NCBI GenBank assembly: GCA_016281805.1
Contig: JAEEJJ010000130.1
Location: 1 to 51,598, forward strand
DNA: 51,598 nucleotides
DNA from: Clostridiales bacterium
Lineage (GTDB): Bacteria; Bacillota; Clostridia; Oscillospirales; UBA644
Direction: 5' to 3'
Under the pieces are notes generated by a model that did not search any database, was not told where the DNA came from, and saw only the letters and a list, made by a program, of their open reading frames with translations. Shown here one piece after another: positions 1 to 13,884 of this stretch. The stretch's first letter is position 1, and each line of letters opens with the position of its first letter. The position numbers and the translations under genes were made by a program.

Positions 1-22
1 TATATTTGTCGTTTTTTACATC

Positions 23-51
23 TTGACAAAAATGAGTTTTTAGTGTAGAAT
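23..51 (+). promoter_or_regulatory. sigma-A-type promoter (TTGACA-17-TAGAAT)
   Basis: TTGACA at 23-28, a 17-nt spacer, and TAGAAT at 46-51, about 50 nt upstream of the ATG at 102. Confidence 0.5.
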
Positions 52-101
52 ATTCAATGAAGAGTAAAACTCTTTAAATACTAAAAGGAGTGAAAAACCT
101 T

Positions 102-1124
102 ATGAAAAAAATCTTAGCTGCAGTTATTACTGTTGCAATGATGATCTGCTGTGTTGTTCCTGCTTTCGCAGAAGTATGGCAGGGCACAGACGAACTCGTA
201 CCCGAACTCGTAAAAGTTCCGAAGGCAACAAAGGCTCCCGTTCTTGACGGTGTTCTTGAAAGTTCCTTCTGGGGCGAAAAATTTATGCACACCACCGGTG
301 CCGGCCGTCTTGAATGGGGTACTGAAGGCGGACATATCCATCCGACCGACGGTTCCTTCGAAGACAGCACAGGTTACACCGCTGCTGAAGATTACTACTT
401 CAGATGGGATGAAGAATATCTCTACATTGGTGTTGTAACATACCATGCATATTCTTCAGAAGTTGACGCTTCCGCTATGTGGTCTGCTGGTACTGACTGC
501 CTCCAGATCTACATCGGTCTCGATGACGGTGACGGCGACATGTACAATGACCCGCATCTCGGATTTGGCGTAAACGGTAACCAGGATGCTACCGCTGCAT
601 ACTCCAGCACATTCGAACAGTCTATGCCCGACGCTGCTGATACTGCAACTGTAAACGACGGCATCAAAGCTGCTGTTGGCGTTGACGGTCTTGCAATCAC
701 TTGGGAAATCGCTGTTCCTCTCGCTGATGGTCTCGGCTCTGCCGGCGCTATCGACGACGAATACCTCTTCTCCTGCGCAGACATCGTTGAAGGCCAGTAC
801 TATGTACAGGTAGGTAAAGGATGTCTCTGGGCTGGTAAAACTCCTACAGACTCTCCGATGCTCGTTTTCGCTGAAGCTCTTGCTGAAGAAGAACCCGCTG
901 CTGAAGAACCTGCTGCAGAAGAACCCGCAGCTGAAGAACCCGCTGCAGAAGAACCTGCTGCTGAGGAACCCGCTGCTGAAGAACCGGCTGCTACTGAAAC
1001 TGTAACTCCGGCTCCCACAACCACAACCAACACCAACCCGAAGACTGCTGACGTAAGCGTTCTCTTCTACGCTCTCGCTGCTGTTTCCGCTATCGGTGGT
1101 ATCTCTGTATTTAAGAGAAAATAA
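102..1124 (+). CDS. secreted cell-surface protein with signal peptide, EEPAA linker and C-terminal NPKTAD sorting-type signal; N-terminal domain possibly CBM9/DOMON-like
   Basis: AAAGGAG RBS before the ATG at 102; the track start at 90 is a GTG inside the RBS. Signal peptide is MKKILAAVITVAMMICCVVPAFA. KAPVLDGVLESSFWGEK resembles the start of CBM9-type sugar-binding domains. There are 7 EEPAA repeats, and the tail is NPKTAD plus a hydrophobic stretch plus KRK. Confidence 0.75.
   Translation: MKKILAAVITVAMMICCVVPAFAEVWQGTDELVPELVKVPKATKAPVLDGVLESSFWGEKFMHTTGAGRLEWGTEGGHIHPTDGSFEDSTGYTAAEDYYFRWDEEYLYIGVVTYHAYSSEVDASAMWSAGTDCLQIYIGLDDGDGDMYNDPHLGFGVNGNQDATAAYSSTFEQSMPDAADTATVNDGIKAAVGVDGLAITWEIAVPLADGLGSAGAIDDEYLFSCADIVEGQYYVQVGKGCLWAGKTPTDSPMLVFAEALAEEEPAAEEPAAEEPAAEEPAAEEPAAEEPAAEEPAATETVTPAPTTTTNTNPKTADVSVLFYALAAVSAIGGISVFKRK
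888..992 (+). repeat. in-frame tandem repeat, 7 x 15 nt (GAAGAACCNGCNGCN), encoding (EEPAA)7
   Basis: Seven consecutive 15-nt units read directly from the sequence. The units differ only at synonymous third positions. Confidence 0.95.
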
Positions 1125-1145
1125 GTTGTAGTTAAACTACATACG

Positions 1146-1182
1146 AAAAGGTATAGCTTCGGCTATACCTTTTCTTTTTTTT
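1146..1182 (+). terminator. rho-independent terminator
   Basis: Stem AAAAGGTATAGC / GCTATACCTTTT with a TTCG loop, followed by a T-run. Confidence 0.85.
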
Positions 1183-1187
1183 AAAAA

Positions 1188-1219
1188 AGAGGAGATTTAC
1201 GTTATCTCCTCTATTTTTT
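1188..1219. terminator. second hairpin, bidirectional terminator (serves the minus-strand hydrolase gene)
   Basis: Stem AGAGGAGAT / ATCTCCTCT, flanked by an A-run on the left and a T-run on the right. Confidence 0.7.
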
Positions 1220-1237
1220 GTATTGTCATCTGCGTTA

Positions 1238-3055
1238 TTACTTAATATTTACAAACGGTATTTCGGTCACTCTGAGTTTTGCGCATCCGTAAGGATACAG
1301 CTGCATTTCTCTTTCTTCCCCTATCGGTTCTGTGCTTTCGGGAATTTTAGCGCAGACAGATTCAAAACCGTCTTCAAGTCCCCAATCTATTTCAGCCATT
1401 TTAACGGTAACGGTTACCGGAGGCGCTGAAGAAGAAAAGGGAATATCTGATATTTCTTTTCTGTTGACTTTTAGTTTTCCGTCCGCAAAGCCAAAATTCC
1501 ATGTTGATCTCGGAATATACTCATAATCGCAATAAGGGAATTTTCTTTCAACATTATTGGAGACATATTCGTGCATTTTCTTTTCGTATTCAACAGGAAG
1601 CGAAAATACAAGAGATCCGCATTTAACTGTTTTCAGACCGTACGGTCTGTTTTCAAAATAAGGTAAAGTGTCAAAAGAAATAATAATTTCAGTATTATCT
1701 CCTGCGGTAAGCTCAAAGGATATTTCGGGTGTTTTTTCTGTTTTATTGCCATTGATTGTAATGTTTTCAGCAAATGAAGGGATCCTTACGACAAATTTAA
1801 AATCTTTATCCGTTCTGATTATGTATTTAAGCGTATTTTTGAAAGGATAATCTGTTACAAGTTCAATGTTTATGCCTTCATCATCAAGAGCTGACGGAAC
1901 CGGAATTACGCTGATGATCTTATCCCTGTCTTTCATAAAAGCAGAGAGAGCGAATTTAGGCCATCCCTGATGGAAATTAGCAGTGCAACAGCCGTAACTA
2001 GGCTCAAGTCCGAATATATGCGCCTCAGAATTATTTGTTCTGAACAGAGATCTGCCGGGGAAGCGGATACATGCGATCTGATTGCTCATCTGATCATACT
2101 GATGAGTCCACATATCATCGCTTATGGTTGCAGGAAGAGCATTGAAAGCAATCAATTCAAGTCTTTCTGCCCATTTATAGTCTCCCGTTACGGCAAACAG
2201 TTTTTCTATTGAATACATTTCATCAACGACCGAGCATAATTCGGTTCCCTGGATGGGACTGAGACCGGAAAGGCACTCATCGCCCGTAAAAATACCGACG
2301 GGCGTGCCGTTGTAACGGTAAAGAATATCATAAAAATACTCTGCGCTGCCTTTATATTCTCCGTTCAGCATATTATGAGTAACCGCTTCTGTTTTAAGCA
2401 TCAGCGCCATATTCACAATATGTGTTTCGTATCTCCAGTAGTTCATGGGTCTTTTCCAGCGATCGACGAGTTTTCGGTAATCTGTGCCTTGTTCCTGAAG
2501 AATTTTCGCAAGATCAGCCATCCACTGTTCGCGGTAACGCTCAAACAGAAAATCGAGAGCTATAAAGCATTCAAACCAACGCGCTTTGCCCCAGCCAAAC
2601 AAAGAAATCTTACCCGATGACAGAAGAGTGTAGTAATTTTTAAGAATATCATAAATTACCTTTACGATACTTTCATCACGCGAGCACTCATAATAACCGA
2701 GGAGAACTTTGGTAACAAGATAAATAACCCACGTATCGTATTTAGGTATCTGTTCGTCCGAACAGGGACATATCCATCCGTCAGGGCGCTGCAAAGCCAC
2801 CATACGTGAAACATAATATTTTGCGCGCGAAATCATTTCCTTGTCTTCAAGAAGGTATGCGAGAGGAATAAAACCATCAAGCCAATAGGGAAATCTTTCC
2901 CAGCTTTCGGCATCGCCGCCGAGCCATCCGCTGTCACGGACATCGCGCCATACTTTATCAAGGTTTCCAGACAGCCCTTCAGCCTGAATTTTCAGTTGCT
3001 GCAAAAGCCAGCCTTTCGGTTTGAGTTCGTTAGATGAATAAAAAGAATACATCAT
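1238..3055 (-). CDS. six-hairpin glycoside hydrolase, GH127/DUF1680-like (beta-L-arabinofuranosidase-related)
   Basis: 605 aa. The N-terminus (WLGGDAESWERFPYWLDGFIPLAYLL) and the Cys-rich motif (EPSYGCCTANFHQGWPKF) are typical of the DUF1680/GH127 clan. AAGAGGTG RBS. Confidence 0.6.
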   Translation of the reverse strand: MMYSFYSSNELKPKGWLLQQLKIQAEGLSGNLDKVWRDVRDSGWLGGDAESWERFPYWLDGFIPLAYLLEDKEMISRAKYYVSRMVALQRPDGWICPCSDEQIPKYDTWVIYLVTKVLLGYYECSRDESIVKVIYDILKNYYTLLSSGKISLFGWGKARWFECFIALDFLFERYREQWMADLAKILQEQGTDYRKLVDRWKRPMNYWRYETHIVNMALMLKTEAVTHNMLNGEYKGSAEYFYDILYRYNGTPVGIFTGDECLSGLSPIQGTELCSVVDEMYSIEKLFAVTGDYKWAERLELIAFNALPATISDDMWTHQYDQMSNQIACIRFPGRSLFRTNNSEAHIFGLEPSYGCCTANFHQGWPKFALSAFMKDRDKIISVIPVPSALDDEGINIELVTDYPFKNTLKYIIRTDKDFKFVVRIPSFAENITINGNKTEKTPEISFELTAGDNTEIIISFDTLPYFENRPYGLKTVKCGSLVFSLPVEYEKKMHEYVSNNVERKFPYCDYEYIPRSTWNFGFADGKLKVNRKEISDIPFSSSAPPVTVTVKMAEIDWGLEDGFESVCAKIPESTEPIGEEREMQLYPYGCAKLRVTEIPFVNIK

Positions 3056-3074
3056 ACACCTCTTATTAATTATG

Positions 3075-3560
3075 TCAGATTATTTTGATACCGTAAGCTT
3101 TATCGACCAGTTCGCAAGCGGCGGAATAATCGGATTCATCGATAAGACATGATATTTTGGTTTCTGAAGTAGTAATCATTTTGACAGTTATCTTTTTTTC
3201 GCCAAGCGAGCTGAAAACGAAAGCGGCAACGCCGCAAAGCTCTCTCATCTTTTCGCCCGCAAAAGTGAATTTTGAGTTATTGGTGTTAACATCGATCCTC
3301 AAATCACTATATGATGCTTTCAGCAGGCCGAGAGTAGAAAGAATATTGGCAAGATCGTCGTCTTTTGCTGAAAATGAGACGGTCTGACGAACGCCTGACG
3401 ACGGATTGAGAGATATCATATCAACATTAATGCCCTTCTCGGCAAGACAGCTGAAGATATCGGCAATACTGTCCGAATTGTTCGGAAGATTATATACTGT
3501 TACAAGCGTAACGGCGTTTTCAACGGTTACAGACTCGATAATATCCTTAATGTTAATCAT
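3075..3560 (-). CDS. stand-alone ACT-domain protein (aspartokinase regulatory-subunit-like)
   Basis: Two ACT-like repeats (VTVYNLPNNSDSIADIFSCLAEKGINVDMIS and FAGEKMRELCGVAAFVFSSLGEKKITVKMITTS). I prefer the ATG at 3560, which follows a GAGGGTGA RBS, over the TTG at 3578. Confidence 0.6.
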   Translation of the reverse strand: MINIKDIIESVTVENAVTLVTVYNLPNNSDSIADIFSCLAEKGINVDMISLNPSSGVRQTVSFSAKDDDLANILSTLGLLKASYSDLRIDVNTNNSKFTFAGEKMRELCGVAAFVFSSLGEKKITVKMITTSETKISCLIDESDYSAACELVDKAYGIKII

Positions 3561-3570
3561 AATATCACCC

Positions 3571-4332
3571 TCAATCAATCATATCCTGCATGGTGTAAAG
3601 ACCGGCAGGTTTATCGGAAAGAAATGCAGCAGCCTTCAATGCGCCGATCGCAAAAATCCTTCTTGATCCTGCGCTGTGGCTGATAGTTATGACCTCATCA
3701 TCACCGGCAAAAATAACATCATGCTCCCCTACTATTGTTCCGCCCCGAACGGAATGTATGCCTATTTCGCTGTTAGTTCTTTTTCTTCTTTCGGAATATC
3801 TCTCATAGATGCGTTTCATTGGTCTGTTTTCAGCCTCGGTAACAGCTTCTGCAAGCATCAGAGCAGTTCCTGAAGGAGCATCCAGTTTGCGGTTATGATG
3901 TTTTTCGATTATTTCAACATCGTAGTCTTCTCCGAAAACCGCCGCGGCTTTTTTTACAAGATCGGCGACAACGTTCACGCCGAACGACATATTCGGGGAG
4001 AAGAAGACGGGAATTTTTTCTGACGCGTTTTCAATCACCTTTTTTTGTTCCTCAGTATAACCCGTGGTTGCAAGAACGACAGGGAGTGTGTTTTTCAAAG
4101 CGTATGATATGACGTCGGAAAGAAGCGACGGATGAGAAAAATCTATAATTGCGCCGACAGGCAGATCAACGTCGTTTACGGATCTGTAAAGCGGGTATTT
4201 TACGTCCGGTCCGTCTTTGATATCAACGCCTGCCGCTATACGGAGTTTGTCGGAAAAACGGTCCGAAAGAGAACAGTCCGATATCATTTTTCCCATTACG
4301 CCGAGACAGCCGCAAAGAAGAATATCAATCAT
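3571..4332 (-). CDS. dapB: 4-hydroxy-tetrahydrodipicolinate reductase
   Basis: Diagnostic motif EKHHNRKLDAPSGTA, correct length of 253 aa, and position in a dap operon. Confidence 0.95.
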   Translation of the reverse strand: MIDILLCGCLGVMGKMISDCSLSDRFSDKLRIAAGVDIKDGPDVKYPLYRSVNDVDLPVGAIIDFSHPSLLSDVISYALKNTLPVVLATTGYTEEQKKVIENASEKIPVFFSPNMSFGVNVVADLVKKAAAVFGEDYDVEIIEKHHNRKLDAPSGTALMLAEAVTEAENRPMKRIYERYSERRKRTNSEIGIHSVRGGTIVGEHDVIFAGDDEVITISHSAGSRRIFAIGALKAAAFLSDKPAGLYTMQDMID

Positions 4333-4352
4333 TATAATGCCTCATTTTTAAT

Positions 4353-5234
4353 TTATTTAAGTATTTCGAGCGCTTTTTTGAGTTTTTCGAGGTTTGCGGG
4401 TGTCATTTCACAAAGAGGAAGACGACATTCGCCTACATCAAAACCGAGAATATTCATTGCTGTTTTAACGGGGATGGGATTTGTTTCGATAAACAAAGCA
4501 TCTATAAGCTCAGAATATTTTATTTGCAGTTCAGCTGACTTTGCCGTATCTCCGTTAAAGTAACTGGAACAGATTTCGTGAGTCTGTTTCGGAATAATGT
4601 TTGAAAGAACGGAAATGACACCTTTGGCGCCGAGAGAAAGTATTGGCGTAATAAGTCCGTCTTCTCCTGAATAAATATCAAGGGCATCTCCGCAAAGCGC
4701 ACGGATATGAACGATATCCGCAACATTACCGCTTGCTTCTTTTGTTGCTACGATATTCGGGTGTTTTGACAGTTCCAGATATGTTTCGGGTTTTATGGTC
4801 ATACCTGTTCTGCCGGGAACATTATAAAGAATACAGGGAATATCCACGGCATCTGCAATCGCACTGAAATGTCTGACAAGCCCCAACTGAGTTGTTTTGT
4901 TGTAATACGGAGTCACGTTAAGGTAAGCATCAGCGCCGACTTCAGCGGCAAATCTGGTCAGTTCGATCGCATATGCGGTATCGTTGCTGCCCGTGCCTGC
5001 GATCACAGGGATCCTGCCTGCAGTTTTTTCTACGGCAAAACGGATAACATCACGATGTTCTTCATCTGTAAGAGTAGACGCTTCGCCTGTTGTGCCGCAT
5101 ATTATAATAGCATCCGTGGAATTTGCGATCTGATATTCTATTAATTCTTCAAGCTTGGCGAAATTGACTGATAAATCTTTATTGAAAGGGGTCACTATAG
5201 CAACGCCTGCGCCTGTGAAAACTGTTTTTTTCAT
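4353..5234 (-). CDS. dapA: 4-hydroxy-tetrahydrodipicolinate synthase
   Basis: 293 aa. Contains [20 protein letters not shown] and NVTPYYNK, with the DapA-typical layout. Confidence 0.95.
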
Positions 5235-5245
5235 ATTATTCTCCC

Positions 5246-6325
5246 TTAATCAAAGTAGCCTTTTGCGGCATACAGTTCCGCCATTTCAACCGCACCGCCC
5301 GCAGCGCCGCGAAGTGTGTTGTGAGAAAGCGAAACAAATTTGTAATCATATTGAGAGTCTTCGCGAAGTCTTCCGACGGAAACAGCCATACCGTTTTCCA
5401 GATTACGGTGAAGTTTTGCCTGCGGATAATTATCTTCATTAAAATAATGAATAAACTGTTTTGGCGCTGTAGGCAGAGAAAGAAGCTGAGGCTCTCCTTT
5501 GTAATTCTGCCAGAGAGAAATGATTTCCTCTTTTGTTGGTTTATTATCAAAAGAAACAAAAACAGCGGCAAAATGACCGTCCGATACTGGAACGCGGAGA
5601 CATTGCGTAGTTATAAGAGGAGATGATGCGCTGACTATTCGATCCCCCTCTATTTTTCCCCAAACTTTCAACGGCTCTTTTTCGGATTTTTCTTCCTCGC
5701 CGGCGATGTACGGTATCAGATTGTCCTGCATTTCAGGCCATGTATCAAAGTTTTTCCCTGCTCCGGATATTGCCTGGTATGTGCAGGCGAGTATTTTTGA
5801 AATGCCGAATTTTCTGAGCGGCTGAAGCGCAGGAACATAGCTTTGAATTGAGCAGTTGGATTTTACGGATATAAAACCGCGTTTTGTGCCGAGACGCTTT
5901 TTTTGCGAAGCGACTATCGCTATATGCTCAGGGTTGACCTCGGGAATAATCATGGGAACGTCAGAAGTAAATCTGTTTGCGGAATTATTGGACATAACCG
6001 GACATTCGTGCTTTGCGTATTCTTCTTCAAGCGCTCTGATCTCGTCCTTTTTCATATCGACGGCACAGAAAACAAAATCTACGGAAGACGTGATTTTATC
6101 GATGTCCGCAGTTGCGTCCATAACGATTATTTTTCTCATCTTTTCAGGTATCGGAGAAGTCATCAGCCATCTGCCCGACACAGCTTCCTCATAAGTTTTA
6201 CCGGCGGAACGTCCCGACGCCGCAAGGACTGAGACATTGAACCACGGATGATTTTCGAGCAATAAGGCGAACCGCTGACCTACCATTCCGGTCGCTCCGA
6301 TTATTCCGACATTATAATTTCTCAC
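5246..6325 (-). CDS. asd: aspartate-semialdehyde dehydrogenase
   Basis: Contains [14 protein letters not shown], an active-site-type NCS motif and [15 protein letters not shown] chose the GTG at 6325, preceded by GGAGA, because the longer track ORF (to 6415) runs through the riboswitch terminator. Confidence 0.88.
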
Positions 6326-6350
6326 TTTGATTTCTCCAATTCTTAAATAT

Positions 6351-6378
6351 GCAAAACGACGGAAAAAGCTCCGTCGTG
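6351..6378 (-). terminator. L-box expression-platform terminator
   Basis: The minus strand reads ACGACGGA-GCUUUU-UCCGUCGU followed by UUUGC. It lies between the aptamer and the asd RBS. Confidence 0.7.
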
Positions 6379-6399
6379 AATAAAATAAATCATTTTTTC

Positions 6400-6585
6400 G
6401 CAACAGATAGCTCAATACCGTAATACGGTAACAGCCGAACAGCTCTTAACTGTCCGTCCGGATAATGACGTTTCCTGTTCAGTCATTTCCTCGGCGATGG
6501 CACCTTTTTTTCGCTGTTTGCAGGAACAACAATCCGAAATTTATCGAAATTAAGCGAAATACTTATTGACAACGCGCCTCTATTA
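6400..6585 (-). promoter_or_regulatory. lysine riboswitch (L-box) aptamer
   Basis: The minus strand reads AAUAGAGGCGCGUUGUCAAUAAGUA...GGUGCCAUCGCCGAGGAAAUGAC...GUCAUUAUCCGGACGGACAGUUAAGAGCUGUUCGGCUGU. These match the conserved L-box blocks AGAGGCGC, AGUA, GUCGCCGARG and GCUGU. It sits in the leader of a lysine-biosynthesis operon. Confidence 0.85.
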
Positions 6586-6594
6586 AGTTATAAT
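6566..6594 (+). promoter_or_regulatory. queA promoter (TTGACA-17-TATAAT)
   Basis: Perfect consensus hexamers at 6566-6571 and 6589-6594 with a 17-nt spacer. It overlaps the first nucleotides of the divergent L-box transcript. Confidence 0.65.
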
Positions 6595-6596
6595 TA

Positions 6597-6625
6597 AGTA
6601 TAACAGATTTTATTTGATATGTCAA
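6597..6625 (-). promoter_or_regulatory. promoter of the L-box/asd operon (TTGACA-17-TATACT)
   Basis: On the minus strand, TTGACA is at 6625-6620 and TATACT at 6602-6597. The riboswitch begins about 15 nt downstream. Confidence 0.65.
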
Positions 6626-6679
6626 CACAGATATTAAAAAATTTCAATAAAAGACATAAAGAGAGTTTTTTCGTAAACT

Positions 6680-7720
6680 ATGGATTTAAAAGATTTTTAT
6701 TATGACCTTCCCACAGAGCTTATAGCGCAGCATCCTGCAGAAAAAAGAGATCTATCGAGACTGATGTTTCTTGATAAAAAGACCGGGCAGATACGGCACG
6801 GGACATTCCGGGATATAATTGATGAATTTGATAAAGGCGATTGCCTTATACTGAACGATTCAAGAGTCATTCCGGCAAGACTTTTTGCAGAAAGAGTTTC
6901 GGACAAAGCGAAGATCGAAGTTTTTCTTCTGAGACCGCTTGACAATTCAAACACATGGGAATGCCTTGTAAAGCCCGGCAAAAAAATGAAAACCGGAACA
7001 AAAATCGACGTAAAAGGAATTCCTGCAGAAGTAACCGAAGTATTTGAAAACGGCAACAGAGCCATCCGTTTTGAATTTGACGGTGATTTCAAAGACAAGC
7101 TTAACGAAATAGGTGAAATCCCGCTGCCCCCGTACATACATGAAAAACAGGACGATTACAGCAGATATCAGACTGTATACGCAAAATATGACGGTTCTGT
7201 TGCAGCACCTACCGCGGGACTTCATTTTACAGAGGAGCTGCTTGATGAACTGCGAAACAAAGGCGTTGAAATAGGTTTTGTTACTTTGCACGTAGGGTTG
7301 GGAACATTCAGACCCGTAAAGACCGAAATAATTGAAGAGCATAAAATGCATTCGGAGTTTTTTATACTTCCAGATAAGACGGCGGAAATAATCAACAGAT
7401 GCAAAAAGAACAAACACAGAGTAACGGCTGTTGGAACAACATGCACAAGAACACTTGAAACAGTTGGAACGAGGCTCGGAATAAACGAAGATAATTTCAA
7501 GCTTACTGAAATGTCAGGCGAAACAGATATTTTTATTTATCCGCCGTATGAGTTTAAAGTAATAGACAGATTGATCACAAATTTCCATCTTCCGGAAAGC
7601 ACGCTGATAATGCTTGTTTCAGCCCTTGCGGGAAGAGAAAACGTATTGAATGCCTACAAAGAAGCAGTGAAAGAAAAATACAGATTTTTTTCATTCGGCG
7701 ACGCTATGTTCATTGGATAG
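6680..7720 (+). CDS. queA: S-adenosylmethionine:tRNA ribosyltransferase-isomerase
   Basis: 346 aa. Contains FYYDLPTELIAQHP, LPPYI, AAPTAGLHFT and FFSFGDAMFI, which are QueA signatures. Confidence 0.95.
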   Translation: MDLKDFYYDLPTELIAQHPAEKRDLSRLMFLDKKTGQIRHGTFRDIIDEFDKGDCLILNDSRVIPARLFAERVSDKAKIEVFLLRPLDNSNTWECLVKPGKKMKTGTKIDVKGIPAEVTEVFENGNRAIRFEFDGDFKDKLNEIGEIPLPPYIHEKQDDYSRYQTVYAKYDGSVAAPTAGLHFTEELLDELRNKGVEIGFVTLHVGLGTFRPVKTEIIEEHKMHSEFFILPDKTAEIINRCKKNKHRVTAVGTTCTRTLETVGTRLGINEDNFKLTEMSGETDIFIYPPYEFKVIDRLITNFHLPESTLIMLVSALAGRENVLNAYKEAVKEKYRFFSFGDAMFIG

Positions 7721-7750
7721 CAGTTTTTGAAAACGATATACAAACATTAA

Positions 7751-7785
7751 AAAAGTCCTGAATCTATGCGGTTTCAGGACTTTTT
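7751..7785. terminator. bidirectional rho-independent terminator after queA
   Basis: Stem AAAAGTCCTGAA / TTCAGGACTTTT, with an A-run upstream and a T-run downstream. Confidence 0.85.
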
Positions 7786-7790
7786 CCTTT

Positions 7791-7945
7791 TCAATTCTCT
7801 TTGTAGATAAATTCGTGTTTTATGCCGTTTTTGAAGGTTATCGACATCACACGCCCATTTTTTATACAAAAGTTGTTACTTACCGTTTTTATAAAATCCT
7901 TCAAAATTCGCGGGTCAATTTCTTTAAGTAAAGATATTGTCTCAG
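7791..7945 (-). pseudogene. possible 3' stump of an unidentified minus-strand gene
   Basis: The minus frame reads ...SLLKEIDPRILKDFIKTVSNNFCIKNGRVMSITFKNGIKHEFIYKEN and stops just before the bidirectional terminator. The upstream part of the same track ORF is antisense to the next CDS and looks non-coding. Confidence 0.3.
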
Positions 7946-7968
7946 CTGTAGATAACGAAGGTGGAACG

Positions 7969-8451
7969 ATGTTCGGTCTGCCTTTCAGATTGAAACAGCC
8001 TACTTCCATGGCAGGTAAAATCGCTGAAGATGTGGCGAAGGGAGATTCAATAGAAGATGCATCAGGAGAAATAAGGGACGCCGTAAGGTACACGGCTATC
8101 TTTCCTGAGGAAAACTTCACTGACGGCTATTACAAAGTGAAGAAATCTCTGGAAAAGAAAGGCTATGAAGAGGTCCGATGCAAAAACTTTTACGAAATGT
8201 ACGAAGCGGGAGACCAATGCCAGAAGGCTGTTCAATGCGTATATAAGGATAAATCGGGATATGTGTTTGAGTTTCAGTTTCACACGGTAGACAGCGCAGG
8301 GGCAAAAGAGGTAAACCATCCCGTATATGAAGAGTTCAGAAAAGCCACAGTGCCGAAGGAAATAAAAAACAAATATTTCGGGAATATGAGGTACATCGGA
8401 ACTCATGTTCCTGTTCCACGCGGTGTCATGGGTATAAAGTCGCACGGATAA
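7969..8451 (+). CDS. RelA/SpoT-synthetase (RSH/SAS)-fold nucleotide pyrophosphokinase-like protein, short or 5'-truncated
   Basis: GAAGGTGG RBS before the ATG at 7969. The motifs RLKQPTSMAGK (R-x-K-x3-S-x3-K), RDAVRYT, FEFQFHT (E-x-Q-x2-T) and NHPVY occur in the order and spacing of small alarmone synthetases. Confidence 0.5.
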   Translation: MFGLPFRLKQPTSMAGKIAEDVAKGDSIEDASGEIRDAVRYTAIFPEENFTDGYYKVKKSLEKKGYEEVRCKNFYEMYEAGDQCQKAVQCVYKDKSGYVFEFQFHTVDSAGAKEVNHPVYEEFRKATVPKEIKNKYFGNMRYIGTHVPVPRGVMGIKSHG

Positions 8452-8463
8452 CACAAACGGGTC

Positions 8464-8492
8464 TTGAAATATCATCTTAAATGTGATATAAT
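8464..8492 (+). promoter_or_regulatory. promoter (TTGAAA-17-TATAAT)
   Basis: Hexamers at 8464-8469 and 8487-8492. The RBS AGGGAGG and the ATG at 8516 follow. Confidence 0.6.
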
Positions 8493-8515
8493 AAGAATAA
8501 AGGGAGGCATAAACA

Positions 8516-8755
8516 ATGGCACGGACGCGATATTATTTACATGAACGAGAATCGTACCCTGTTAGACTTGTAAAGCTGGAATTTGACGACGAAGGCTTTC
8601 CAGAAGGGTCAGGATGGAAAGACGGCAAATGGGAGCCTATCAGCAACCGCTTGGAGTTGAGTCTTCTTAACGACCTCACACCTTATCATGACATTACCGA
8701 AGAAGAAGCCAAGGCGTACCTGAAATCACAGGAAAAGGCTTCAAAGCAGGAATAA
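8516..8755 (+). CDS. hypothetical 79-aa acidic protein (candidate immunity/antitoxin)
   Basis: It has a strong RBS and its own promoter. I recognise no motif in it. It lies between the synthetase-like and hydrolase-like genes. Confidence 0.55.
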   Translation: MARTRYYLHERESYPVRLVKLEFDDEGFPEGSGWKDGKWEPISNRLELSLLNDLTPYHDITEEEAKAYLKSQEKASKQE

Positions 8756-8788
8756 AATACAGTTTAGAAATTTGTAACCGTTTAGCTA

Positions 8789-8816
8789 TTGATTGGTAAC
8801 CTTTATCGCGTATAAT
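8789..8816 (+). promoter_or_regulatory. promoter (TTGATT-16-TATAAT)
   Basis: Hexamers at 8789-8794 and 8811-8816. The context TATAATAAATACG is shared with the promoter at 11513. Confidence 0.55.
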
Positions 8817-8846
8817 AAATACGTAAGATGGGAGGGATGCTTTTTG

Positions 8847-9257
8847 ATGTTAAACAAAGCACTCCTGATGGCGTATGAAGCGCACAAAAATCAGGTTGAC
8901 AAAGGCGGAGAGCCGTATTATCTGCATTCGATATATGTTGCTCTGACAGTGCAGGGAGAAACCGAGAAAATCGTTGCTCTGTTGCATGACATTGTGGAAG
9001 ATACAGACGTTACGCTTGGAGACCTTCGGCGTGAAGGATTCTCAGAACAGGTGATTGAAGCTGTTGACGCAATAACTCACCGCGGTGAGGATTACGATGA
9101 ATATATAAAGAAGGTCAAGAGCAATCCGACCGCAACAAAGGTGAAAATCGCTGATATTCACCACAACATGGACATCACGCGGCTGAAAGAGGTTACAGAG
9201 AAAGATAAAGCACGTATTGAGAAATACAAAAGGGCTCTGAAATATTTACAGGAATAA
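8847..9257 (+). CDS. single-domain HD hydrolase of the RelA/SpoT hydrolase type (small alarmone hydrolase-like)
   Basis: GGAGG RBS, then the ATG at 8847. Contains AYEAHKNQVDKGGEPYYLH, ALLHDIVEDT, AITH and VKIADIHHNMD, the HD_4/SAH pattern. About 136 aa. Confidence 0.8.
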   Translation: MLNKALLMAYEAHKNQVDKGGEPYYLHSIYVALTVQGETEKIVALLHDIVEDTDVTLGDLRREGFSEQVIEAVDAITHRGEDYDEYIKKVKSNPTATKVKIADIHHNMDITRLKEVTEKDKARIEKYKRALKYLQE

Positions 9258-9258
9258 T

Positions 9259-9288
9259 CAGGCGGCTGAAAAGCCAGCCTGTTTTTTT
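9259..9288 (+). terminator. rho-independent terminator
   Basis: Stem CAGGCGGCT / AGCCAGCCTG with one bulge and a GAAA loop, followed by TTTTTTT. Confidence 0.7.
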
Positions 9289-9340
9289 ATATCAAGATAC
9301 ACCATAAAATATTCATTGCTCTTTATAGGAAAGGGCTACA

Positions 9341-9832
9341 ATGGATATTATATACAAACCGATATTTGAGCTTCATGCTTATGAAAACAATCCGAGAATA
9401 AATGATGACGCGGTAGAACCCGTTGCAAAAAGCATAAAAGAATTTGGGTTCAAAGTCCCGATTCTCATTGATAAGGACAACGTAATAATTGCGGGACATA
9501 CTCGCCTTAAAGCTGCACAAGCTCTTGGGATGAAGGAAGTCCCGTGCATACTTTGTGATGACCTTACGCCCGAACAGGTAAAAGCGTTTCGCCTTGCTGA
9601 TAACAAAGTAGCTGAGTTCGCTGACTGGGATATTCCCCTATTAGAGCTTGAGGTCAAAGAAGTTGAGCTTGTCATTAAAGAAGCAGGACTGGAAGATTTA
9701 GTCAACAATCTCCCTCCTATTGATATTGACGGTTATCTGGAACGCATGGATAATAAGCAGGATGAAGAACCTAAACCCAAACAGGCACGATGCCCGCACT
9801 GTGGCGAATGGGTAGACATTGACGAGATATAA
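9341..9832 (+). CDS. ParB/Srx N-terminal-domain protein with C-terminal CxxC tail (paralog 1)
   Basis: Contains NPRIND, SIKEFGFKVPILIDKDNVIIAGHTRLKAAQALGMKEVPC and LTPEQVKAFRLADN, the ParB-like nuclease domain seen at the N-terminus of phage methylases. It ends with CPHCGEWVDIDE. Confidence 0.8.
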   Translation: MDIIYKPIFELHAYENNPRINDDAVEPVAKSIKEFGFKVPILIDKDNVIIAGHTRLKAAQALGMKEVPCILCDDLTPEQVKAFRLADNKVAEFADWDIPLLELEVKEVELVIKEAGLEDLVNNLPPIDIDGYLERMDNKQDEEPKPKQARCPHCGEWVDIDEI

Positions 9833-9846
9833 CAGGAGGAAACACG

Positions 9847-10326
9847 ATGGAGATAGTATACAAGCCCACGGACTCTCTTGTTATGTATGACAAGAACCCA
9901 AGAATAAACGACAGAGCAATCGTTCCTGTTGCTAACAGCATAAAGGAGTTCGGATTCAAAGTCCCGATTCTGCTTGACAAGGATAATGTCATTATTGCAG
10001 GACACACAAGACTTAAAGCCGCAAAGAGTTTAGGTATGAAGGAAGTCCCCTGCATTATGTGTGAGGACTTAACTCCTGAGCAGGTAAAGGCGTTCAGGAT
10101 TATTGACAACAAGACGGCAGAGATTTCAAACTGGAACTTGGAAAAGCTGAACGAGGAGCTGGGCGATATTCATATTGACATGGAAGAGTTCGGCTTCTAT
10201 GATATTCCCGTAGTAGATGAGCTCGGCGAGTATCTGAAAGACCATGAAGAAAAACCTCCGAAAGAAAAAGAGCCGCTGAGAATACAATGCCCGTATTGCG
10301 GAGAGTGGTTTGATGTCGATGAATAA
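9847..10326 (+). CDS. ParB/Srx N-terminal-domain protein with C-terminal CxxC tail (paralog 2)
   Basis: Same architecture as the upstream gene (IIAGHTRLKAAKSLGMKEVPC; CPYCGEWFDVDE). The intergenic gap is 14 nt. Confidence 0.8.
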   Translation: MEIVYKPTDSLVMYDKNPRINDRAIVPVANSIKEFGFKVPILLDKDNVIIAGHTRLKAAKSLGMKEVPCIMCEDLTPEQVKAFRIIDNKTAEISNWNLEKLNEELGDIHIDMEEFGFYDIPVVDELGEYLKDHEEKPPKEKEPLRIQCPYCGEWFDVDE

Positions 10327-11101
10327 AGCGAAGTACACACAATCCGAAAGACGCAGAGCTATGATAGCGAGGGTCTATCACAAGGATGCGGATGAAGACG
10401 GATGGAAGACACTTCACGGCGAGCACGTGCATTTCAAGGATGGAGAGATAGACAAAGGAAACCCTCACCTTGTAAATGCTCTGAAAGGTAAAGCAGGAAA
10501 AGAAGCCAAAGGCGAAGAAAAGGGCTTGACCAAAAGCGGGAAAAGTGGTATAATAGAAAAAAGCAGACCTGCACCGAAGTTTACCGTCCCCTCCCCTAAA
10601 AGTTTTCAAAAGGCACTGAGCGCAGCAAAGGCAACCTGCCCGCCCGAAAAAGCGTGGCGCGTTGATTCGACATACAGTGCTGAGGATTATTCGGAATGCA
10701 AACTGTTCTCAACCGAAAAGGGCAGCACCGTTGCTATAAAGCCTGACGGTGATATTATCAGTGTATGCAAATGCGAGGGAGATGCTTTACGCGGACGCGA
10801 TTTAATTAAATACGCAGTAGAGAATGGCGGAACAAAGCTCGATAGTTTCAGCGGCAACCATAAGTTCTACGTACATAATGGGTTCGAGCCTGTAAGCTGG
10901 TGCGAGTTTGATGAAAAATACGCCCCTGATGGATGGGACAAGAATCGTGACGAATTGGAACCAGTAATTTTTTATAAATATACTGGAAAGACGAGTCAGT
11001 ATGGGACGTTAAATGATTTTCTGTCAAGTGTTCCTGCCAGCAAGGACTATGACACGGCAAAAGAAATAAGGAATAAAGAATTAGAAAAAAAGGAAAAGTG
11101 A
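10313..11101 (+). CDS. composite protein: N-terminal WKTLHGEHVHF module, Lys/Gly-rich linker, C-terminal GNAT-like domain
   Basis: GGAGAG RBS, then the ATG at 10313, overlapping the ParB-2 stop. The C-terminus (VAIKPDGDIISVCKCEGDALRGRDLIKYAVENGGTKLDSFSGNHKFYVHNGFEPVS) has the beta4-alpha3 and GF pattern of GNAT acetyltransferases. Confidence 0.45.
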   Translation: MSMNKAKYTQSERRRAMIARVYHKDADEDGWKTLHGEHVHFKDGEIDKGNPHLVNALKGKAGKEAKGEEKGLTKSGKSGIIEKSRPAPKFTVPSPKSFQKALSAAKATCPPEKAWRVDSTYSAEDYSECKLFSTEKGSTVAIKPDGDIISVCKCEGDALRGRDLIKYAVENGGTKLDSFSGNHKFYVHNGFEPVSWCEFDEKYAPDGWDKNRDELEPVIFYKYTGKTSQYGTLNDFLSSVPASKDYDTAKEIRNKELEKKEK

Positions 11102-11105
11102 TACA

Positions 11106-11345
11106 ATGAAAACTCCCACATATGAAGAGTTCGAGAAGGCTGTTACGTATTACTTCAAGGATGGATGGAAGACCTTGAGCGATGAGCAGGTAATGGAATA
11201 TATAAAAAGCGAAGAAGCGCAAGAAGCAATAAGAGAAAAATACGCTGACGATGTTTCTGCTTACGAGAGCGGAAAGATAACACGCAGACAGTTTATGGTC
11301 GGCGGGGCTTCTGCTGTTGGCAACTGTCTGGTATATATGTACTAA
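11106..11345 (+). CDS. hypothetical 79-aa protein
   Basis: It starts 4 nt after the preceding stop, is the last gene before a terminator, and has no recognisable motif. Confidence 0.5.
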   Translation: MKTPTYEEFEKAVTYYFKDGWKTLSDEQVMEYIKSEEAQEAIREKYADDVSAYESGKITRRQFMVGGASAVGNCLVYMY

Positions 11346-11414
11346 CCGTAAAGCAAAGGGCAAGACCAGCTAAATAATTAAATATCTCATCTGCCATGTG
11401 TAGAAGGAGTTTTC

Positions 11415-11451
11415 AAAGACGTTTTGTTTAGGCAAAGCGTCTTTTGTTTTT
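11415..11451 (+). terminator. rho-independent terminator
   Basis: Stem AAAGACG...CGTCTTT with extra inner pairs, followed by TGTTTTT. Confidence 0.7.
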
Positions 11452-11512
11452 ATGCAAAAAAGCAGTCCGCAACAACCTGCTTAAAAATAAACTAAAAATT
11501 CAAGAAGAGGGC

Positions 11513-11541
11513 TTGACCGAACGCGAAAAATCGGATATAAT
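11513..11541 (+). promoter_or_regulatory. promoter (TTGACC-17-TATAAT)
   Basis: Hexamers at 11513-11518 and 11536-11541, about 17 nt upstream of the ATG at 11558. Confidence 0.6.
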
Positions 11542-11557
11542 AAATACGAGCAGGAAG

Positions 11558-12127
11558 ATGAAGGTCTCTGCAACTGGCTCGAACAAATTCAAGGTCGGTT
11601 TTACAGAAAAAAATCTCGACCGCCACTGGGGAGGGTCGAGCGACCCCAGCGATGAGTACCCTGGCTGGACCAAAGAACAATATGCACAAAGAGCTTTGGA
11701 GCTTGTTCAGAGCGCAACAAGTGAAAATGTTTTAGGTTACAAAACATCCAGCGGTGCGATAGTAAGGTATGATAAAGCAACTAACGACTTTGTTAAGGGC
11801 TATCCCGAAACAGGTGTAGTGTCAATGTACAAGCCAGAAGACGGTGAGGAATACTTCTTGCGCAGGTTAAAAAAAGAGAGTGGCATCACAACCGACAGTA
11901 AGGAGGAAAATATGCCCGAAGGTAAGCACTTATGTCCCGTATGTGGTAAGTATGAGTTCCCAGAAGAGGACAGCCTCGATGTATGTGAGGTCTGTGGCTG
12001 GGAGGATGATGTGATTCAGGAAGACGACCCTGATTACAGAGGCGGTGCAAATAAGATGAGCCTCAACGAAGCAAAGGCAGCGTGGGAGAAATCAGGCGGA
12101 ACAATACCGAAGCCTTATGGCTTGTAA
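11558..12127 (+). CDS. toxin-like alpha/beta domain (BECR-RNase-like?) fused to a CPCC-family cysteine-rich zinc-ribbon domain
   Basis: The track start at 11444 lies inside the terminator, so I use the ATG at 11558, downstream of the promoter. The C-terminus (CPVCGKYEFPEEDSLDVCEVCGWEDDVIQEDDPDYRGGANKMSLNEAKAAW) is the Cys_rich_CPCC pattern. The N-terminal part (RHWGG...EYPGWTKEQY...VRYDKATNDFV...SMYKPEDGEEYF) resembles toxin tips of phage or polymorphic toxins. Confidence 0.6.
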   Translation: MKVSATGSNKFKVGFTEKNLDRHWGGSSDPSDEYPGWTKEQYAQRALELVQSATSENVLGYKTSSGAIVRYDKATNDFVKGYPETGVVSMYKPEDGEEYFLRRLKKESGITTDSKEENMPEGKHLCPVCGKYEFPEEDSLDVCEVCGWEDDVIQEDDPDYRGGANKMSLNEAKAAWEKSGGTIPKPYGL

Positions 12128-12280
12128 TTTGCCGAATTTGCGCAGGTTCATCCGAGCAGAGGAATTATACTACTCTGTATAGAACCCGTCCTGCTACATA
12201 GTTATTTTAAGCTATTATTGACGATAAAGGTGAGTGACGGAAACGCCACTTGCCTTTATTGCGTTATAAGGAGAAATCGA

Positions 12281-12492
12281 GTGCATAAAAGAAAGGCTAT
12301 TTCGTAAACCACCCTATCGTAACATCGGTCGGAATTTTTGAGTACAAGAACCCTGACGGAAGTACAAGAAGGGAGTGACGACTCCCCGAAGATGTCTTTG
12401 ATGCCGAGAGCCTCGCGTCATATAAAGGAAAGCCCATTATCATGACTCACGATGCTGGCTATGTTGATAAAAACAACAGTTCTTTGTGTTGA
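12281..12492 (+). pseudogene. DUF2213-like phage head scaffold/protease gene fragment (frameshift, in-frame TGA, 3' truncation)
   Basis: AAGGAG plus the GTG at 12281 gives MHKRK, followed by an apparent 1-nt frameshift in an A-run. The shifted frame reads KGYFVNHPIVTSVGIFEYKNPDGSTRRE*RLPEDVFDAESLASYKGKPIIMTHDAGYVDKNN, with the TGA at 12376-12378. Confidence 0.6.
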
Positions 12493-12583
12493 TGATATGG
12501 CGACAATCCACGTCGCATGGGACAACGGCTCTGGGCTTGGAGTGGCGTACGGGGAAGATTATTGCAGAAGAATCGAACAGTAA
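12488..12583 (+). pseudogene. C-terminal fragment of a DUF4314-like domain
   Basis: VDDMATIHVAWDNGSGLGVAYGEDYCRRIEQ* matches the DUF4314 core (IHV-WDNGS-L). It has no upstream domain or start signal and directly abuts the DUF2213-like fragment. Confidence 0.5.
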
Positions 12584-12595
12584 GCCGCAAAGGGA

Positions 12596-12624
12596 TTGAC
12601 AATTATCCGTGACTGTGATAATAT
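12596..12624 (+). promoter_or_regulatory. promoter reading into tgt (TTGACA, then TGTGATAAT/TAATAT)
   Basis: TTGACA at 12596-12601 and a -10 region at 12614-12624. Its GGG-TTGAC context resembles the other island promoters. Confidence 0.5.
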
Positions 12625-12726
12625 ATGTATACGATGCAAAAACGTTGTCTTTACGCGATTGAGAACCACATGATTCAGGGATAGAAAACTCATATCCCGT
12701 GAACATATGGGACGCAATGTTTATAG

Positions 12727-13884
<1,158 letters not shown>

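Follow-up and report, generated by a model that had tools for sequence, protein, structure and literature searches.

The 51,598-nt contig JAEEJJ010000130.1 of a Clostridiales bacterium (assembly GCA_016281805.1), here called the window, carries three adjacent genes of a phage-type toxin–immunity cassette behind queA. They are a 5'-truncated gene for a synthetase-like toxin (the stub), a gene for a 79-amino-acid protein assigned to the IapK family and a gene for an HD-domain hydrolase assigned to the Aph1 family (Table 1). The locus is probably the left end of a decayed prophage, in which the toxin stub is probably inert and the immunity genes survive. The order toxin, small immunity gene, HD hydrolase is the published apk2-iapK-aph1 layout, known from work of 2023–2025: Ahmad et al. 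(2023; PMC10083569) described it for Apk2 as 'bicistronic immunity', made up of toxin, binding immunity protein and Aph1, and Paulet et al. (2025; PMC12226406) found apk2-iapK-aph1 in three prophages. An earlier reading of this DNA, made without database searches (the sequence-only reading), had proposed an alarmone-type toxin–antidote module at this place, and every sequence feature that it named was found where it had been located.

Fold and family of the synthetase-like protein

The open reading frame (ORF) of the stub can be taken as 7822–8451 (209 amino acids) or as 7969–8451 (160 amino acids). A search of 5.8 billion proteins returned 75 relatives, mostly of 280–330 amino acids. A family alignment of 34 members, the window sequence included, was used to build a profile of 273 positions. 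Invariant columns of this alignment were R25/K27/S31/K35, D55-R58-Y59-T60, E119-Q121-T124 and Y138. The syn1 motif RxKxxxSxxxK, the catalytic Asp of syn2, ExQxxT of syn4 and HxxYE of syn5 were all present in the stub, and the synthetase-type motifs that the sequence-only reading had matched by eye in 7969–8451 fall on these invariant columns. In the profile match to PDB 8VX3 (SaEAS, an exported alarmone synthetase from Streptomyces albidoflavus), D55 of the stub was aligned with the site of D121A, the inactivating mutation of the crystallized SaEAS construct (PMC12691689).

The Pfam RelA_SpoT model matched the stub from end to end without reaching significance (E 0.12), which is why the gene is annotated 'hypothetical protein'. 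The toxin family profile matched 8VX3 strongly (E 2e-30), the only solved structure to be matched in this way. An AlphaFold2 (AF2) model of the 7915–8448 product had a predicted local distance difference test score (pLDDT) of 92.6. Its top Foldseek match was again 8VX3 (E 8e-14, TM-score 0.78–0.84, 28% identity), and all 45 of the 45 matches at E<=1e-3 were RelA/SpoT homologue (RSH) synthetases (RelP, RelQ, Tas1, CapRel and long Rel enzymes). Given the profile match to 8VX3, the confident AF2 model and the RSH-only Foldseek matches, the assignment is settled at the level of the predicted fold, which is of the RelA/SpoT synthetase type; no non-RSH fold was found for 7969–8451, as the sequence-only reading had expected.

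With tblastn, the stub was 30–34% identical, over 88–97% of the fragment, to the C-termini of MuF 'head morphogenesis' proteins from phages of Mannheimia, Pasteurella, Aggregatibacter and S. pneumoniae. Apk2 toxin domains from three of these host species have already been studied. The only NCBIfam match for the three module proteins was that of the stub to the C-terminus of the XopAD effector, and the likeness of EAS-type synthetases to the C-terminus of XopAD type III effectors has been described in the EAS paper. A PADLOC scan of the three module proteins gave no match. An N-terminal MuF domain (Phage_Mu_F) was found neither in the window nor in the closest full-length relatives (P0014, P0054), and it was present in more distant members of the toxin family (L043, L058, L074).

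The syn3 G-loop GYxSxH of (p)ppGpp synthetases is replaced in the stub by QKAVQC. The substitution had been noticed in the sequence-only reading as QKAVQ and is real; it follows a variant conserved in the subfamily, [QH]K[AS][VI]Q[CS]. Characterized Apk enzymes likewise deviate in syn3, where they have GxN (PMC12226406). Measured against the Apk signatures given in the same paper, the stub has RYT in syn2, FH instead of YH in syn4 and AxQ instead of GxN in syn3. The homology to Apk2, together with the linkage to a hydrolase bearing a (p)ppApp-specific signature, points to (p)ppApp as the probable product of the toxin.

Truncation of the toxin gene

A search of the whole 51.6-kb window in all six frames recovered only profile positions 98–273 of 273; the 97 N-terminal positions were absent. 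The stub aligned with residues 137–324 of its closest relative, the 324-amino-acid P0002. The catalytic domain that the family has in common with Apk2 toxin domains and SaEAS begins at about profile position 75–86; in the stub it is short by 12–23 positions, corresponding to the first half of helix alpha-1. The N-terminal region of about 110–145 amino acids, presumed to serve delivery and present in the relatives of 280–330 amino acids, is wholly absent.

In place of the missing part stands the end of a large serine recombinase gene on the opposite strand, which meets the stub tail to tail. A phmmer search with this remnant against 1.84 billion representatives gave 83 matches, nearly all at protein C-termini. 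The remnant was 61% identical to residues 534–577 of P0168, a protein of 579 amino acids with Resolvase, Recombinase and Zn_ribbon_recom domains. Because 7794–7934 encodes recombinase on the minus strand, codons 1–31 of the annotated 209-amino-acid ORF (start 7822) are antisense recombinase. Apparent toxin homology upstream of 7915 ('VF.K.SK') was considered and rejected as chance, the stretch being well-matched recombinase sequence on the other strand. The remnant at 7794–7934 shows where the deletion closed and which integrase the original element is likely to have had. The sequence-only reading was right that N-terminal residues are missing; as judged from the alignments, their loss is the product of this 5' deletion and not a trait of the family.

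The two predicted immunity proteins

The HD protein, whose gene has an alternative TTG start at 8844, matched 7SMG, the structure of Aph1 and thus of the founding member of the (p)ppApp-specific hydrolases, over its full length (E 1.3e-34, residues 1–136 against 7–143), and bifunctional Rel hydrolase domains scored far below 7SMG. The proposal that ORF 8847–9257 encodes an alarmone hydrolase of the small alarmone hydrolase (SAH) type was thereby upheld. The catalytic residues H13, H47-D48 and D103 were present. The specificity signature of Aph1 consists of D24, R96, D116, R119, K133 and Y134 (PMC10083569); five of the six are identical in the HD protein (D18, D109, R112, K126, Y127), and R96 is replaced by K89. 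Joint mutation of D24 and R119 lets Aph1 hydrolyse ppGpp (PMC10083569), and the equivalents of both residues are conserved here. The HD protein was 48–55% identical to the products of the HD genes of phage modules. By these criteria it is a member of the Aph1 family, with predicted specificity for (p)ppApp. Aph1 homologues occur widely as orphans, and they are active (PMC10083569).

A word-based homologue search with the 79-amino-acid protein gave only three close relatives, and the family was for this reason assembled from the genes downstream of toxin homologues. It comprises proteins of 64–100 amino acids with the pattern RYY...L.K...W...(D/E)I(S/T)EEEA. In a comparison set of 86 phage loci with relatives of the toxin domain, a member lay directly 3' of the toxin domain in 32. 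Proteins at the IapK position were picked by their location between the MuF-Apk2 and HD genes in S. pneumoniae, Mannheimia, Aaphi23 and Pasteurella phages; their mutual identities of 33–40% agree with the 35–38% published for IapK (PMC12226406). When the two families were compared with hhalign, a probability of 94.2% was obtained (E 1.2e-7, 67 columns). The 79-amino-acid protein had no match in Pfam and no profile match in the PDB. Its AF2 model (pLDDT 85) gave no significant Foldseek match in the PDB or BFVD, and none to Tis1. The protein is accordingly filed in the IapK family on the hhalign comparison and its position, and by analogy it would bind the synthetase. An IapK-like domain was also seen fused at the N-terminus of a domain of about 140 amino acids with GPMYIP.Q.DAH.EWT (L052 742–1395, L054 6590–7231, L068 6577–7242).

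Expression signals

The terminator between queA and the stub (dG -17.3 kcal/mol, z -5.1) was matched in stability by 0 of 200 shuffled sequences, and on the other strand it follows the recombinase stub. From this terminator (7750–7785) to the ORF, no promoter-like site for the stub was seen. Neither antidote gene shows damage, and a near-consensus promoter as well as a Shine–Dalgarno sequence stands before each of them. The promoters that the sequence-only reading had placed at 8464 and 8789 were recovered with 11/12 (TG-extended) and 10/12 consensus positions.

A promoter in the toxin–immunity gap had been regarded as a departure from known systems. That view did not hold, since one is present in intact phage relatives of the Clostridial type (L001 7867, L003 7966, L007 6541, L008 2114, L010 6528, L034 6513). 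In these phages, expression of the immunity pair probably does not depend on the late head operon. In the characterized S. pneumoniae and Mannheimia loci the genes overlap and the gap promoter is lacking. Only in the window are the two antidote genes set apart by a 91-nt spacer with a second promoter-like site in it; in the phage relatives these genes are translationally coupled, and both the spacer and the 8789 site are absent.

The stub is most likely silent or inert, because the N-terminus and half of helix alpha-1 are lost, a strong terminator lies upstream and no promoter is recognisable.

The cassette in phages

An Aph1-type gene lay 100–500 bp downstream of the toxin domain in 23 of the 86 loci, so that the HD hydrolase does accompany homologues of the synthetase, a point on which the sequence-only reading had made its proposal depend. 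Among the closest relatives (48–61% identity), nearly all had the toxin followed by a gene of 64–81 amino acids and an HD gene of 140–159 amino acids; this order was seen in L001, L003, L007, L008, L010, L014, L034, L073 and others. A small gene between synthetase and hydrolase, thought unusual at first, is thus the norm, in the published apk2-iapK-aph1 modules as in these 23 loci, and the supposed novelty of a three-part system falls away with the layout already in print (PMC10083569, PMC12226406). The phage cassettes were located in head modules, 3' of a portal or prohead-protease gene and 5' of the capsid gene.

The closest full-length relatives are stand-alone proteins of 280–330 amino acids with an N-terminal NPxHxxxGRF/Gly-rich motif or a DUF7211 motif. 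In other forms the toxin domain was fused to MuF, to MuF plus ADP-ribosyltransferase, to an XkdF protease or to a GNAT domain, or stood inside polyvalent proteins. Relatives were found at 236 loci in IMG/VR as against one among GTDB species representatives, where the scan led to a Lachnospiraceae metagenome-assembled genome. What is new at the family level is modest: the stand-alone architecture without MuF, the syn3 variant and the promoter before the immunity genes.

One branch of DUF7211-tagged synthetases (L004 7001–9385, L016–L033; 40–46% identity) lacked both IapK and Aph1 genes. Behind the synthetase stands an unrelated gene of 130 amino acids, and in L004 the next genes, which belong to an early-gene region, are Tad3-like and MazG. 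These surroundings hint at another role for the branch, for instance in host takeover or anti-defence, and at another immunity protein.

Insertion in queA

The gene upstream of the module, queA, occupies 6680–7720, and the next housekeeping gene, tgt, starts at 12751. In contigs of relatives with an empty site (L087–L090), the flanks were 92–95% identical and the queA–tgt gap was 22 nt. When the window was compared by BLAST with the empty-site contig L087, positions 1–7710 aligned up to 9031 and positions 12711 onwards aligned from 9021, an overlap of 11 bp. The corresponding 11-bp core, GACGCTATGTT, stands at 7700–7710 and is repeated at 12711–12721 (overlap GAYGCWATGTT). The new end of queA supplied by the element reads MFIG* in place of MFIE*.

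The island so delimited contains the toxin module, two ParB_N genes, a 263-amino-acid gene, a 79-amino-acid gene, a 227-amino-acid gene with a CPCC domain and a DUF4314 stub. No intact integrase and no structural genes were found in it. The truncated island was present at 99.4–100% identity in six other metagenome contigs. Against GenBank phages, only the ParB genes of the island DNA gave matches (67–71% identity), and an Rfam scan of the island gave nothing credible.

Table 1. Position, strand and basis of the features identified at the queA–tgt locus of the window
Feature	Position	Strand	Basis
Left junction, attL-like, with new queA 3' end supplied by the element	7700..7720	+	BLAST against empty site
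Inserted island of 5.0 kb, prophage remnant	7711..12721	.	Empty-site comparison
Intrinsic terminator, hairpin and U-run, between queA and the stub	7750..7785	+	RNA fold
Large serine recombinase (integrase), 3'-terminal remnant, last ~45 codons	7794..7934	-	phmmer
Truncated Apk2/EAS-type RSH pyrophosphokinase toxin domain, predicted (p)ppApp synthetase	7921..8451	+	Profile, model, tblastn
Sigma-70-type promoter of immunity gene, TTGAAA-17-TATAAT, TG-extended, 11/12	8464..8492	+	Promoter scan
IapK-family protein, 79 amino acids, predicted direct-binding inhibitor of the synthetase	8516..8755	+	Synteny, hhalign
Second promoter-like site, TTGATT-16-TATAAT, 10/12, before HD gene	8789..8816	+	Promoter scan
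Aph1-family HD-domain (p)ppApp hydrolase, 136 amino acids, predicted enzymatic immunity	8847..9257	+	PDB 7SMG profile match
Terminator-like hairpin and T-run, end of module	9264..9279	+	Sequence scan
Right junction, attR-like, displaced original queA 3' end (GACGCAATGTTTATAGAGTAA)	12711..12731	+	BLAST against empty site

Other genes of the island

The two tandem, paralogous ParB_N genes (9341–9832 and 9847–10326) each end in a CxxC zinc-ribbon motif. The pair resembles the N-terminal part of phage ParB-methyltransferases (PADLOC MTase_II, E 2e-24; phrog_620), and no methylase domain follows. The 263-amino-acid ORF (10310–11101) has an N-terminal motif like that of mycobacteriophage L5 gp73, and its C-terminal part matched phrog_2563. 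It is directly followed by a second ORF of 79 amino acids (11106–11345). Homologues of the 263-amino-acid protein adjoin toxin–IapK–Aph1 cassettes in L014, L034 and L055, and the two ORFs could be another cargo/immunity pair.

The N-terminal half of the 227-amino-acid protein (11444–12127) resembles C-terminal extensions of phage portal/minor-head proteins (phrog_15528, positions 661–789 of 794, E 1e-20), and its C-terminus is a Cys_rich_CPCC domain (Pfam E 5e-18; PDB 8EY4/8EY3, E ~1e-16). The 43-amino-acid ORF at 12452–12583 covers only positions 35–69 of the 69 of the DUF4314 profile and is another truncated gene. At the right edge of the island a near-consensus, TG-extended promoter (TTGACA-17-TAATAT, 12596–12624) points toward tgt; it may restore transcription of tgt after the insertion had split it from queA. 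In one 2.3-kb metagenome contig (L094, 1422–2349), identity to the window ends after the HD terminator (about 9300) and different sequence follows. This contig could be a strain variant with another right-hand neighbour or an assembly chimera.

Origin of the locus and alternative explanations

The analysis shows which fold and family each of the three proteins has, that the toxin gene is truncated and the island inserted, and that an integrase stub, a conserved gene order and signals for promoters and terminators are present; the history that would connect these findings is as follows. A prophage would have entered queA at its 3' end, probably with a large serine recombinase as its integrase. 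The phage from which it derives would have carried an apk2-iapK-aph1-type cassette in its head-gene region. The RSH-fold toxin of this cassette is predicted to have used ATP as pyrophosphate donor for the 3'-OH of adenine nucleotides, so that (p)ppApp was formed and ATP drained away. The immunity protein of about 70–80 amino acids would have bound the toxin and blocked its acceptor site, and the HD hydrolase Aph1 would have turned (p)ppApp back into ATP/ADP. A single deletion probably then removed everything between the last ~45 codons of the integrase and about codon 140 of the toxin gene, so that at about 7921–7934 what was left of the integrase gene at its 3' end came to lie against the last two-thirds of the toxin gene. 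Both antidotes probably still work as orphan immunity, neutralising or hydrolysing (p)ppApp that the toxins of related phages or bacteria make. The 'disabled toxin with a surviving antidote', offered as one of two options in the sequence-only reading, is thus the option favoured by the truncation, the terminator and the intact antidotes.

Several points weigh against this account. The 178 retained residues span nearly the whole core of small alarmone synthetases (SAS), about 180 of about 200 aligned columns of 8VX3 and RelP. All 21 of the 21 invariant family positions are kept, the stub has neither a stop codon nor a frameshift, and a good Shine–Dalgarno-like sequence (GAAGGTGGA) precedes ATG 7969. 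Isolated toxin domains were more toxic than full-length Apk2 (PMC10083569), and read-through of the queA terminator into the stub is possible. With the core, the invariant residues and the Shine–Dalgarno-like sequence kept, and isolated domains toxic, the stub may still be active. As syn3 reads AxQ and not the GxN of Apk2/SaEAS, it is the linked Aph1-type hydrolase only that indicates the acceptor nucleotide. Selection on the stub as compared with the antidotes (the ratio of nonsynonymous to synonymous substitution rates, dN/dS) was not measurable because all copies are 99.4–100% identical. The rest of the island matched the gene order of none of the recovered phages.

An extension of the decayed-prophage account, which we put forward tentatively, is that the orphan IapK-like and Aph1 genes, each with a promoter of its own, are kept by the host as a defence island against virion-delivered (p)ppApp-synthetase toxins of a large, uncharacterized clade of Clostridial phages. 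The toxins of this clade differ from characterized Apk2 in having an N-terminal NPxHxxxGRF or DUF7211 tag instead of MuF, a variant KAxQ acceptor motif and a lysogeny-type promoter before the immunity pair. If the defence reading were true, the immunity cassette would decide which lysogens survive superinfection, and the clade might use an acceptor nucleotide other than that of Apk2.

The alternative that survives best, although we hold it to be rather unlikely, is that the stub and both antidotes alike are functionless passengers of a recent deletion and have not yet decayed. The near-identity of the recovered copies (99.4–100%) allows the event to be recent, no integrase or structural genes are left, and other fragments, the DUF4314 and recombinase stubs, are present. 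The condition of the antidote genes speaks against it: both ORFs are complete and keep their catalytic and signature residues, each has its near-consensus promoter and Shine–Dalgarno sequence, and the new 91-nt spacer with its promoter-like site separates them only here. The activity of widespread orphan Aph1 homologues (PMC10083569) also argues for function.

It is distinctly unlikely that the module is live, with an active stub translated from ATG 7969 or 7822 and held in check by constitutively expressed antidotes, be it as a domesticated toxin–antitoxin pair, as a system of the abortive-infection type or as an addiction module stabilising the island. The intact catalytic motifs and invariant residues, the confident AF2 model (pLDDT 92.6) spanning nearly the whole SAS core, the Shine–Dalgarno-like sequence before ATG 7969, the toxicity of toxin domains on their own (PMC10083569) and the stable presence of the island in several samples would all suit such a module. 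They are set against the lack of a promoter from the terminator (7750–7785) to the ORF, the loss of 12–23 positions of the domain shared with Apk2/SaEAS and the antisense recombinase that forms the N-terminus of the 209-amino-acid form; moreover, the deletion that caused the truncation also destroyed the integrase, as is typical of decay.

A classical operon of the toxic SAS (toxSAS) type, FaRel/ATfaRel, with the HD protein as type IV-like antitoxin and no delivery of the toxin by phage, is highly improbable: a synthetase-like gene does adjoin an SAH-type hydrolase, which is the logic of FaRel-ATfaRel as cited in PMC10083569, but full-length relatives are found in phage head modules or fused to MuF, XkdF protease, ADP-ribosyltransferase or polyvalent proteins, 236 viral contigs with relatives stand against a single match among GTDB species representatives, the upstream terminator and the separate antidote promoters mean that the genes are not one operon, and the toxin is truncated and not a full-length, co-transcribed one. 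Of the toxin–antidote logic put forward in the sequence-only reading, the (p)ppApp-synthetase form is therefore retained, and the free-standing toxSAS toxin–antitoxin operon is dropped.

On the favoured account of a decayed prophage, the locus extends the published apk2-iapK-aph1 cassette into phages of gut Clostridia, in a stand-alone form without MuF. Since Pfam does not recognise this form, the three genes are annotated as hypothetical or generic HD. The locus is a clean example of cassette decay, in which the toxin was beheaded and both antidotes persist with their own promoters. It is useful for the annotation and mapping of orphan (p)ppApp hydrolases and opens no new mechanism.

Comparison with known systems

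With toxSAS modules that have an SAH antitoxin (FaRel-ATfaRel), the window module shares the enzymatic reversal of synthetase toxicity by a small alarmone hydrolase. Those modules are chromosomal two-gene operons with a full-length toxin, whereas the window module is phage cargo of three genes with a truncated toxin. Tas1/Apk1-Tis1 (6OX6) likewise combines an RSH-fold (p)ppApp synthetase toxin with a binding immunity protein (Foldseek E 2.8e-5). It differs in its PAAR/type VI secretion system delivery and in having no hydrolase. The Tas1 chain of 6OX6 was absent from the profile matches of the toxin family and low in the Foldseek list, and is a distant match only. No similarity of Tis1 to the 79-amino-acid family was detectable by sequence profile or by Foldseek on the 79-amino-acid model.

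SaEAS (8VX3; PMC12691689) is the best match among solved structures, and the catalytic Asp is common to both proteins. The window toxin gene differs in encoding no signal peptide and in having two immunity genes beside it. The locus also resembles the orphan immunity genes and truncated cassettes of polymorphic toxins (PMC3482391) in its 5'-truncated C-terminal toxin domain, its intact immunity genes and its want of a delivery module. The window copy differs in its origin: a deletion within a prophage left it joined to the stub of an integrase gene, and it does not lie behind a full-length toxin gene as a cassette ready for recombination.

The closest parallel in layout is found in the Apk2-IapK-Aph1 modules of temperate phages, with S. 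pneumoniae SPNA45, M. haemolytica, P. multocida and the Apk2/BcTis1/Aph1 set of B. caccae as examples (PMC10083569, PMC12226406). The window copy differs from these in being 5'-truncated and lying in a prophage remnant, in that the closest full-length relatives of its toxin are not MuF fusions, in its syn3 motif ([QH]K[AS][VI]Q[CS] here, YKGxNT there) and in the own promoter of its immunity genes, which are translationally coupled in the characterized loci. It agrees with them in the order and sizes of the genes, with a toxin domain followed by an immunity protein of about 70–80 amino acids and an HD hydrolase of about 137 amino acids; in its hydrolase, which is about 40–50% identical and carries the Aph1 specificity signature; and, for the relatives of the window cassette, in the location within the phage head module.

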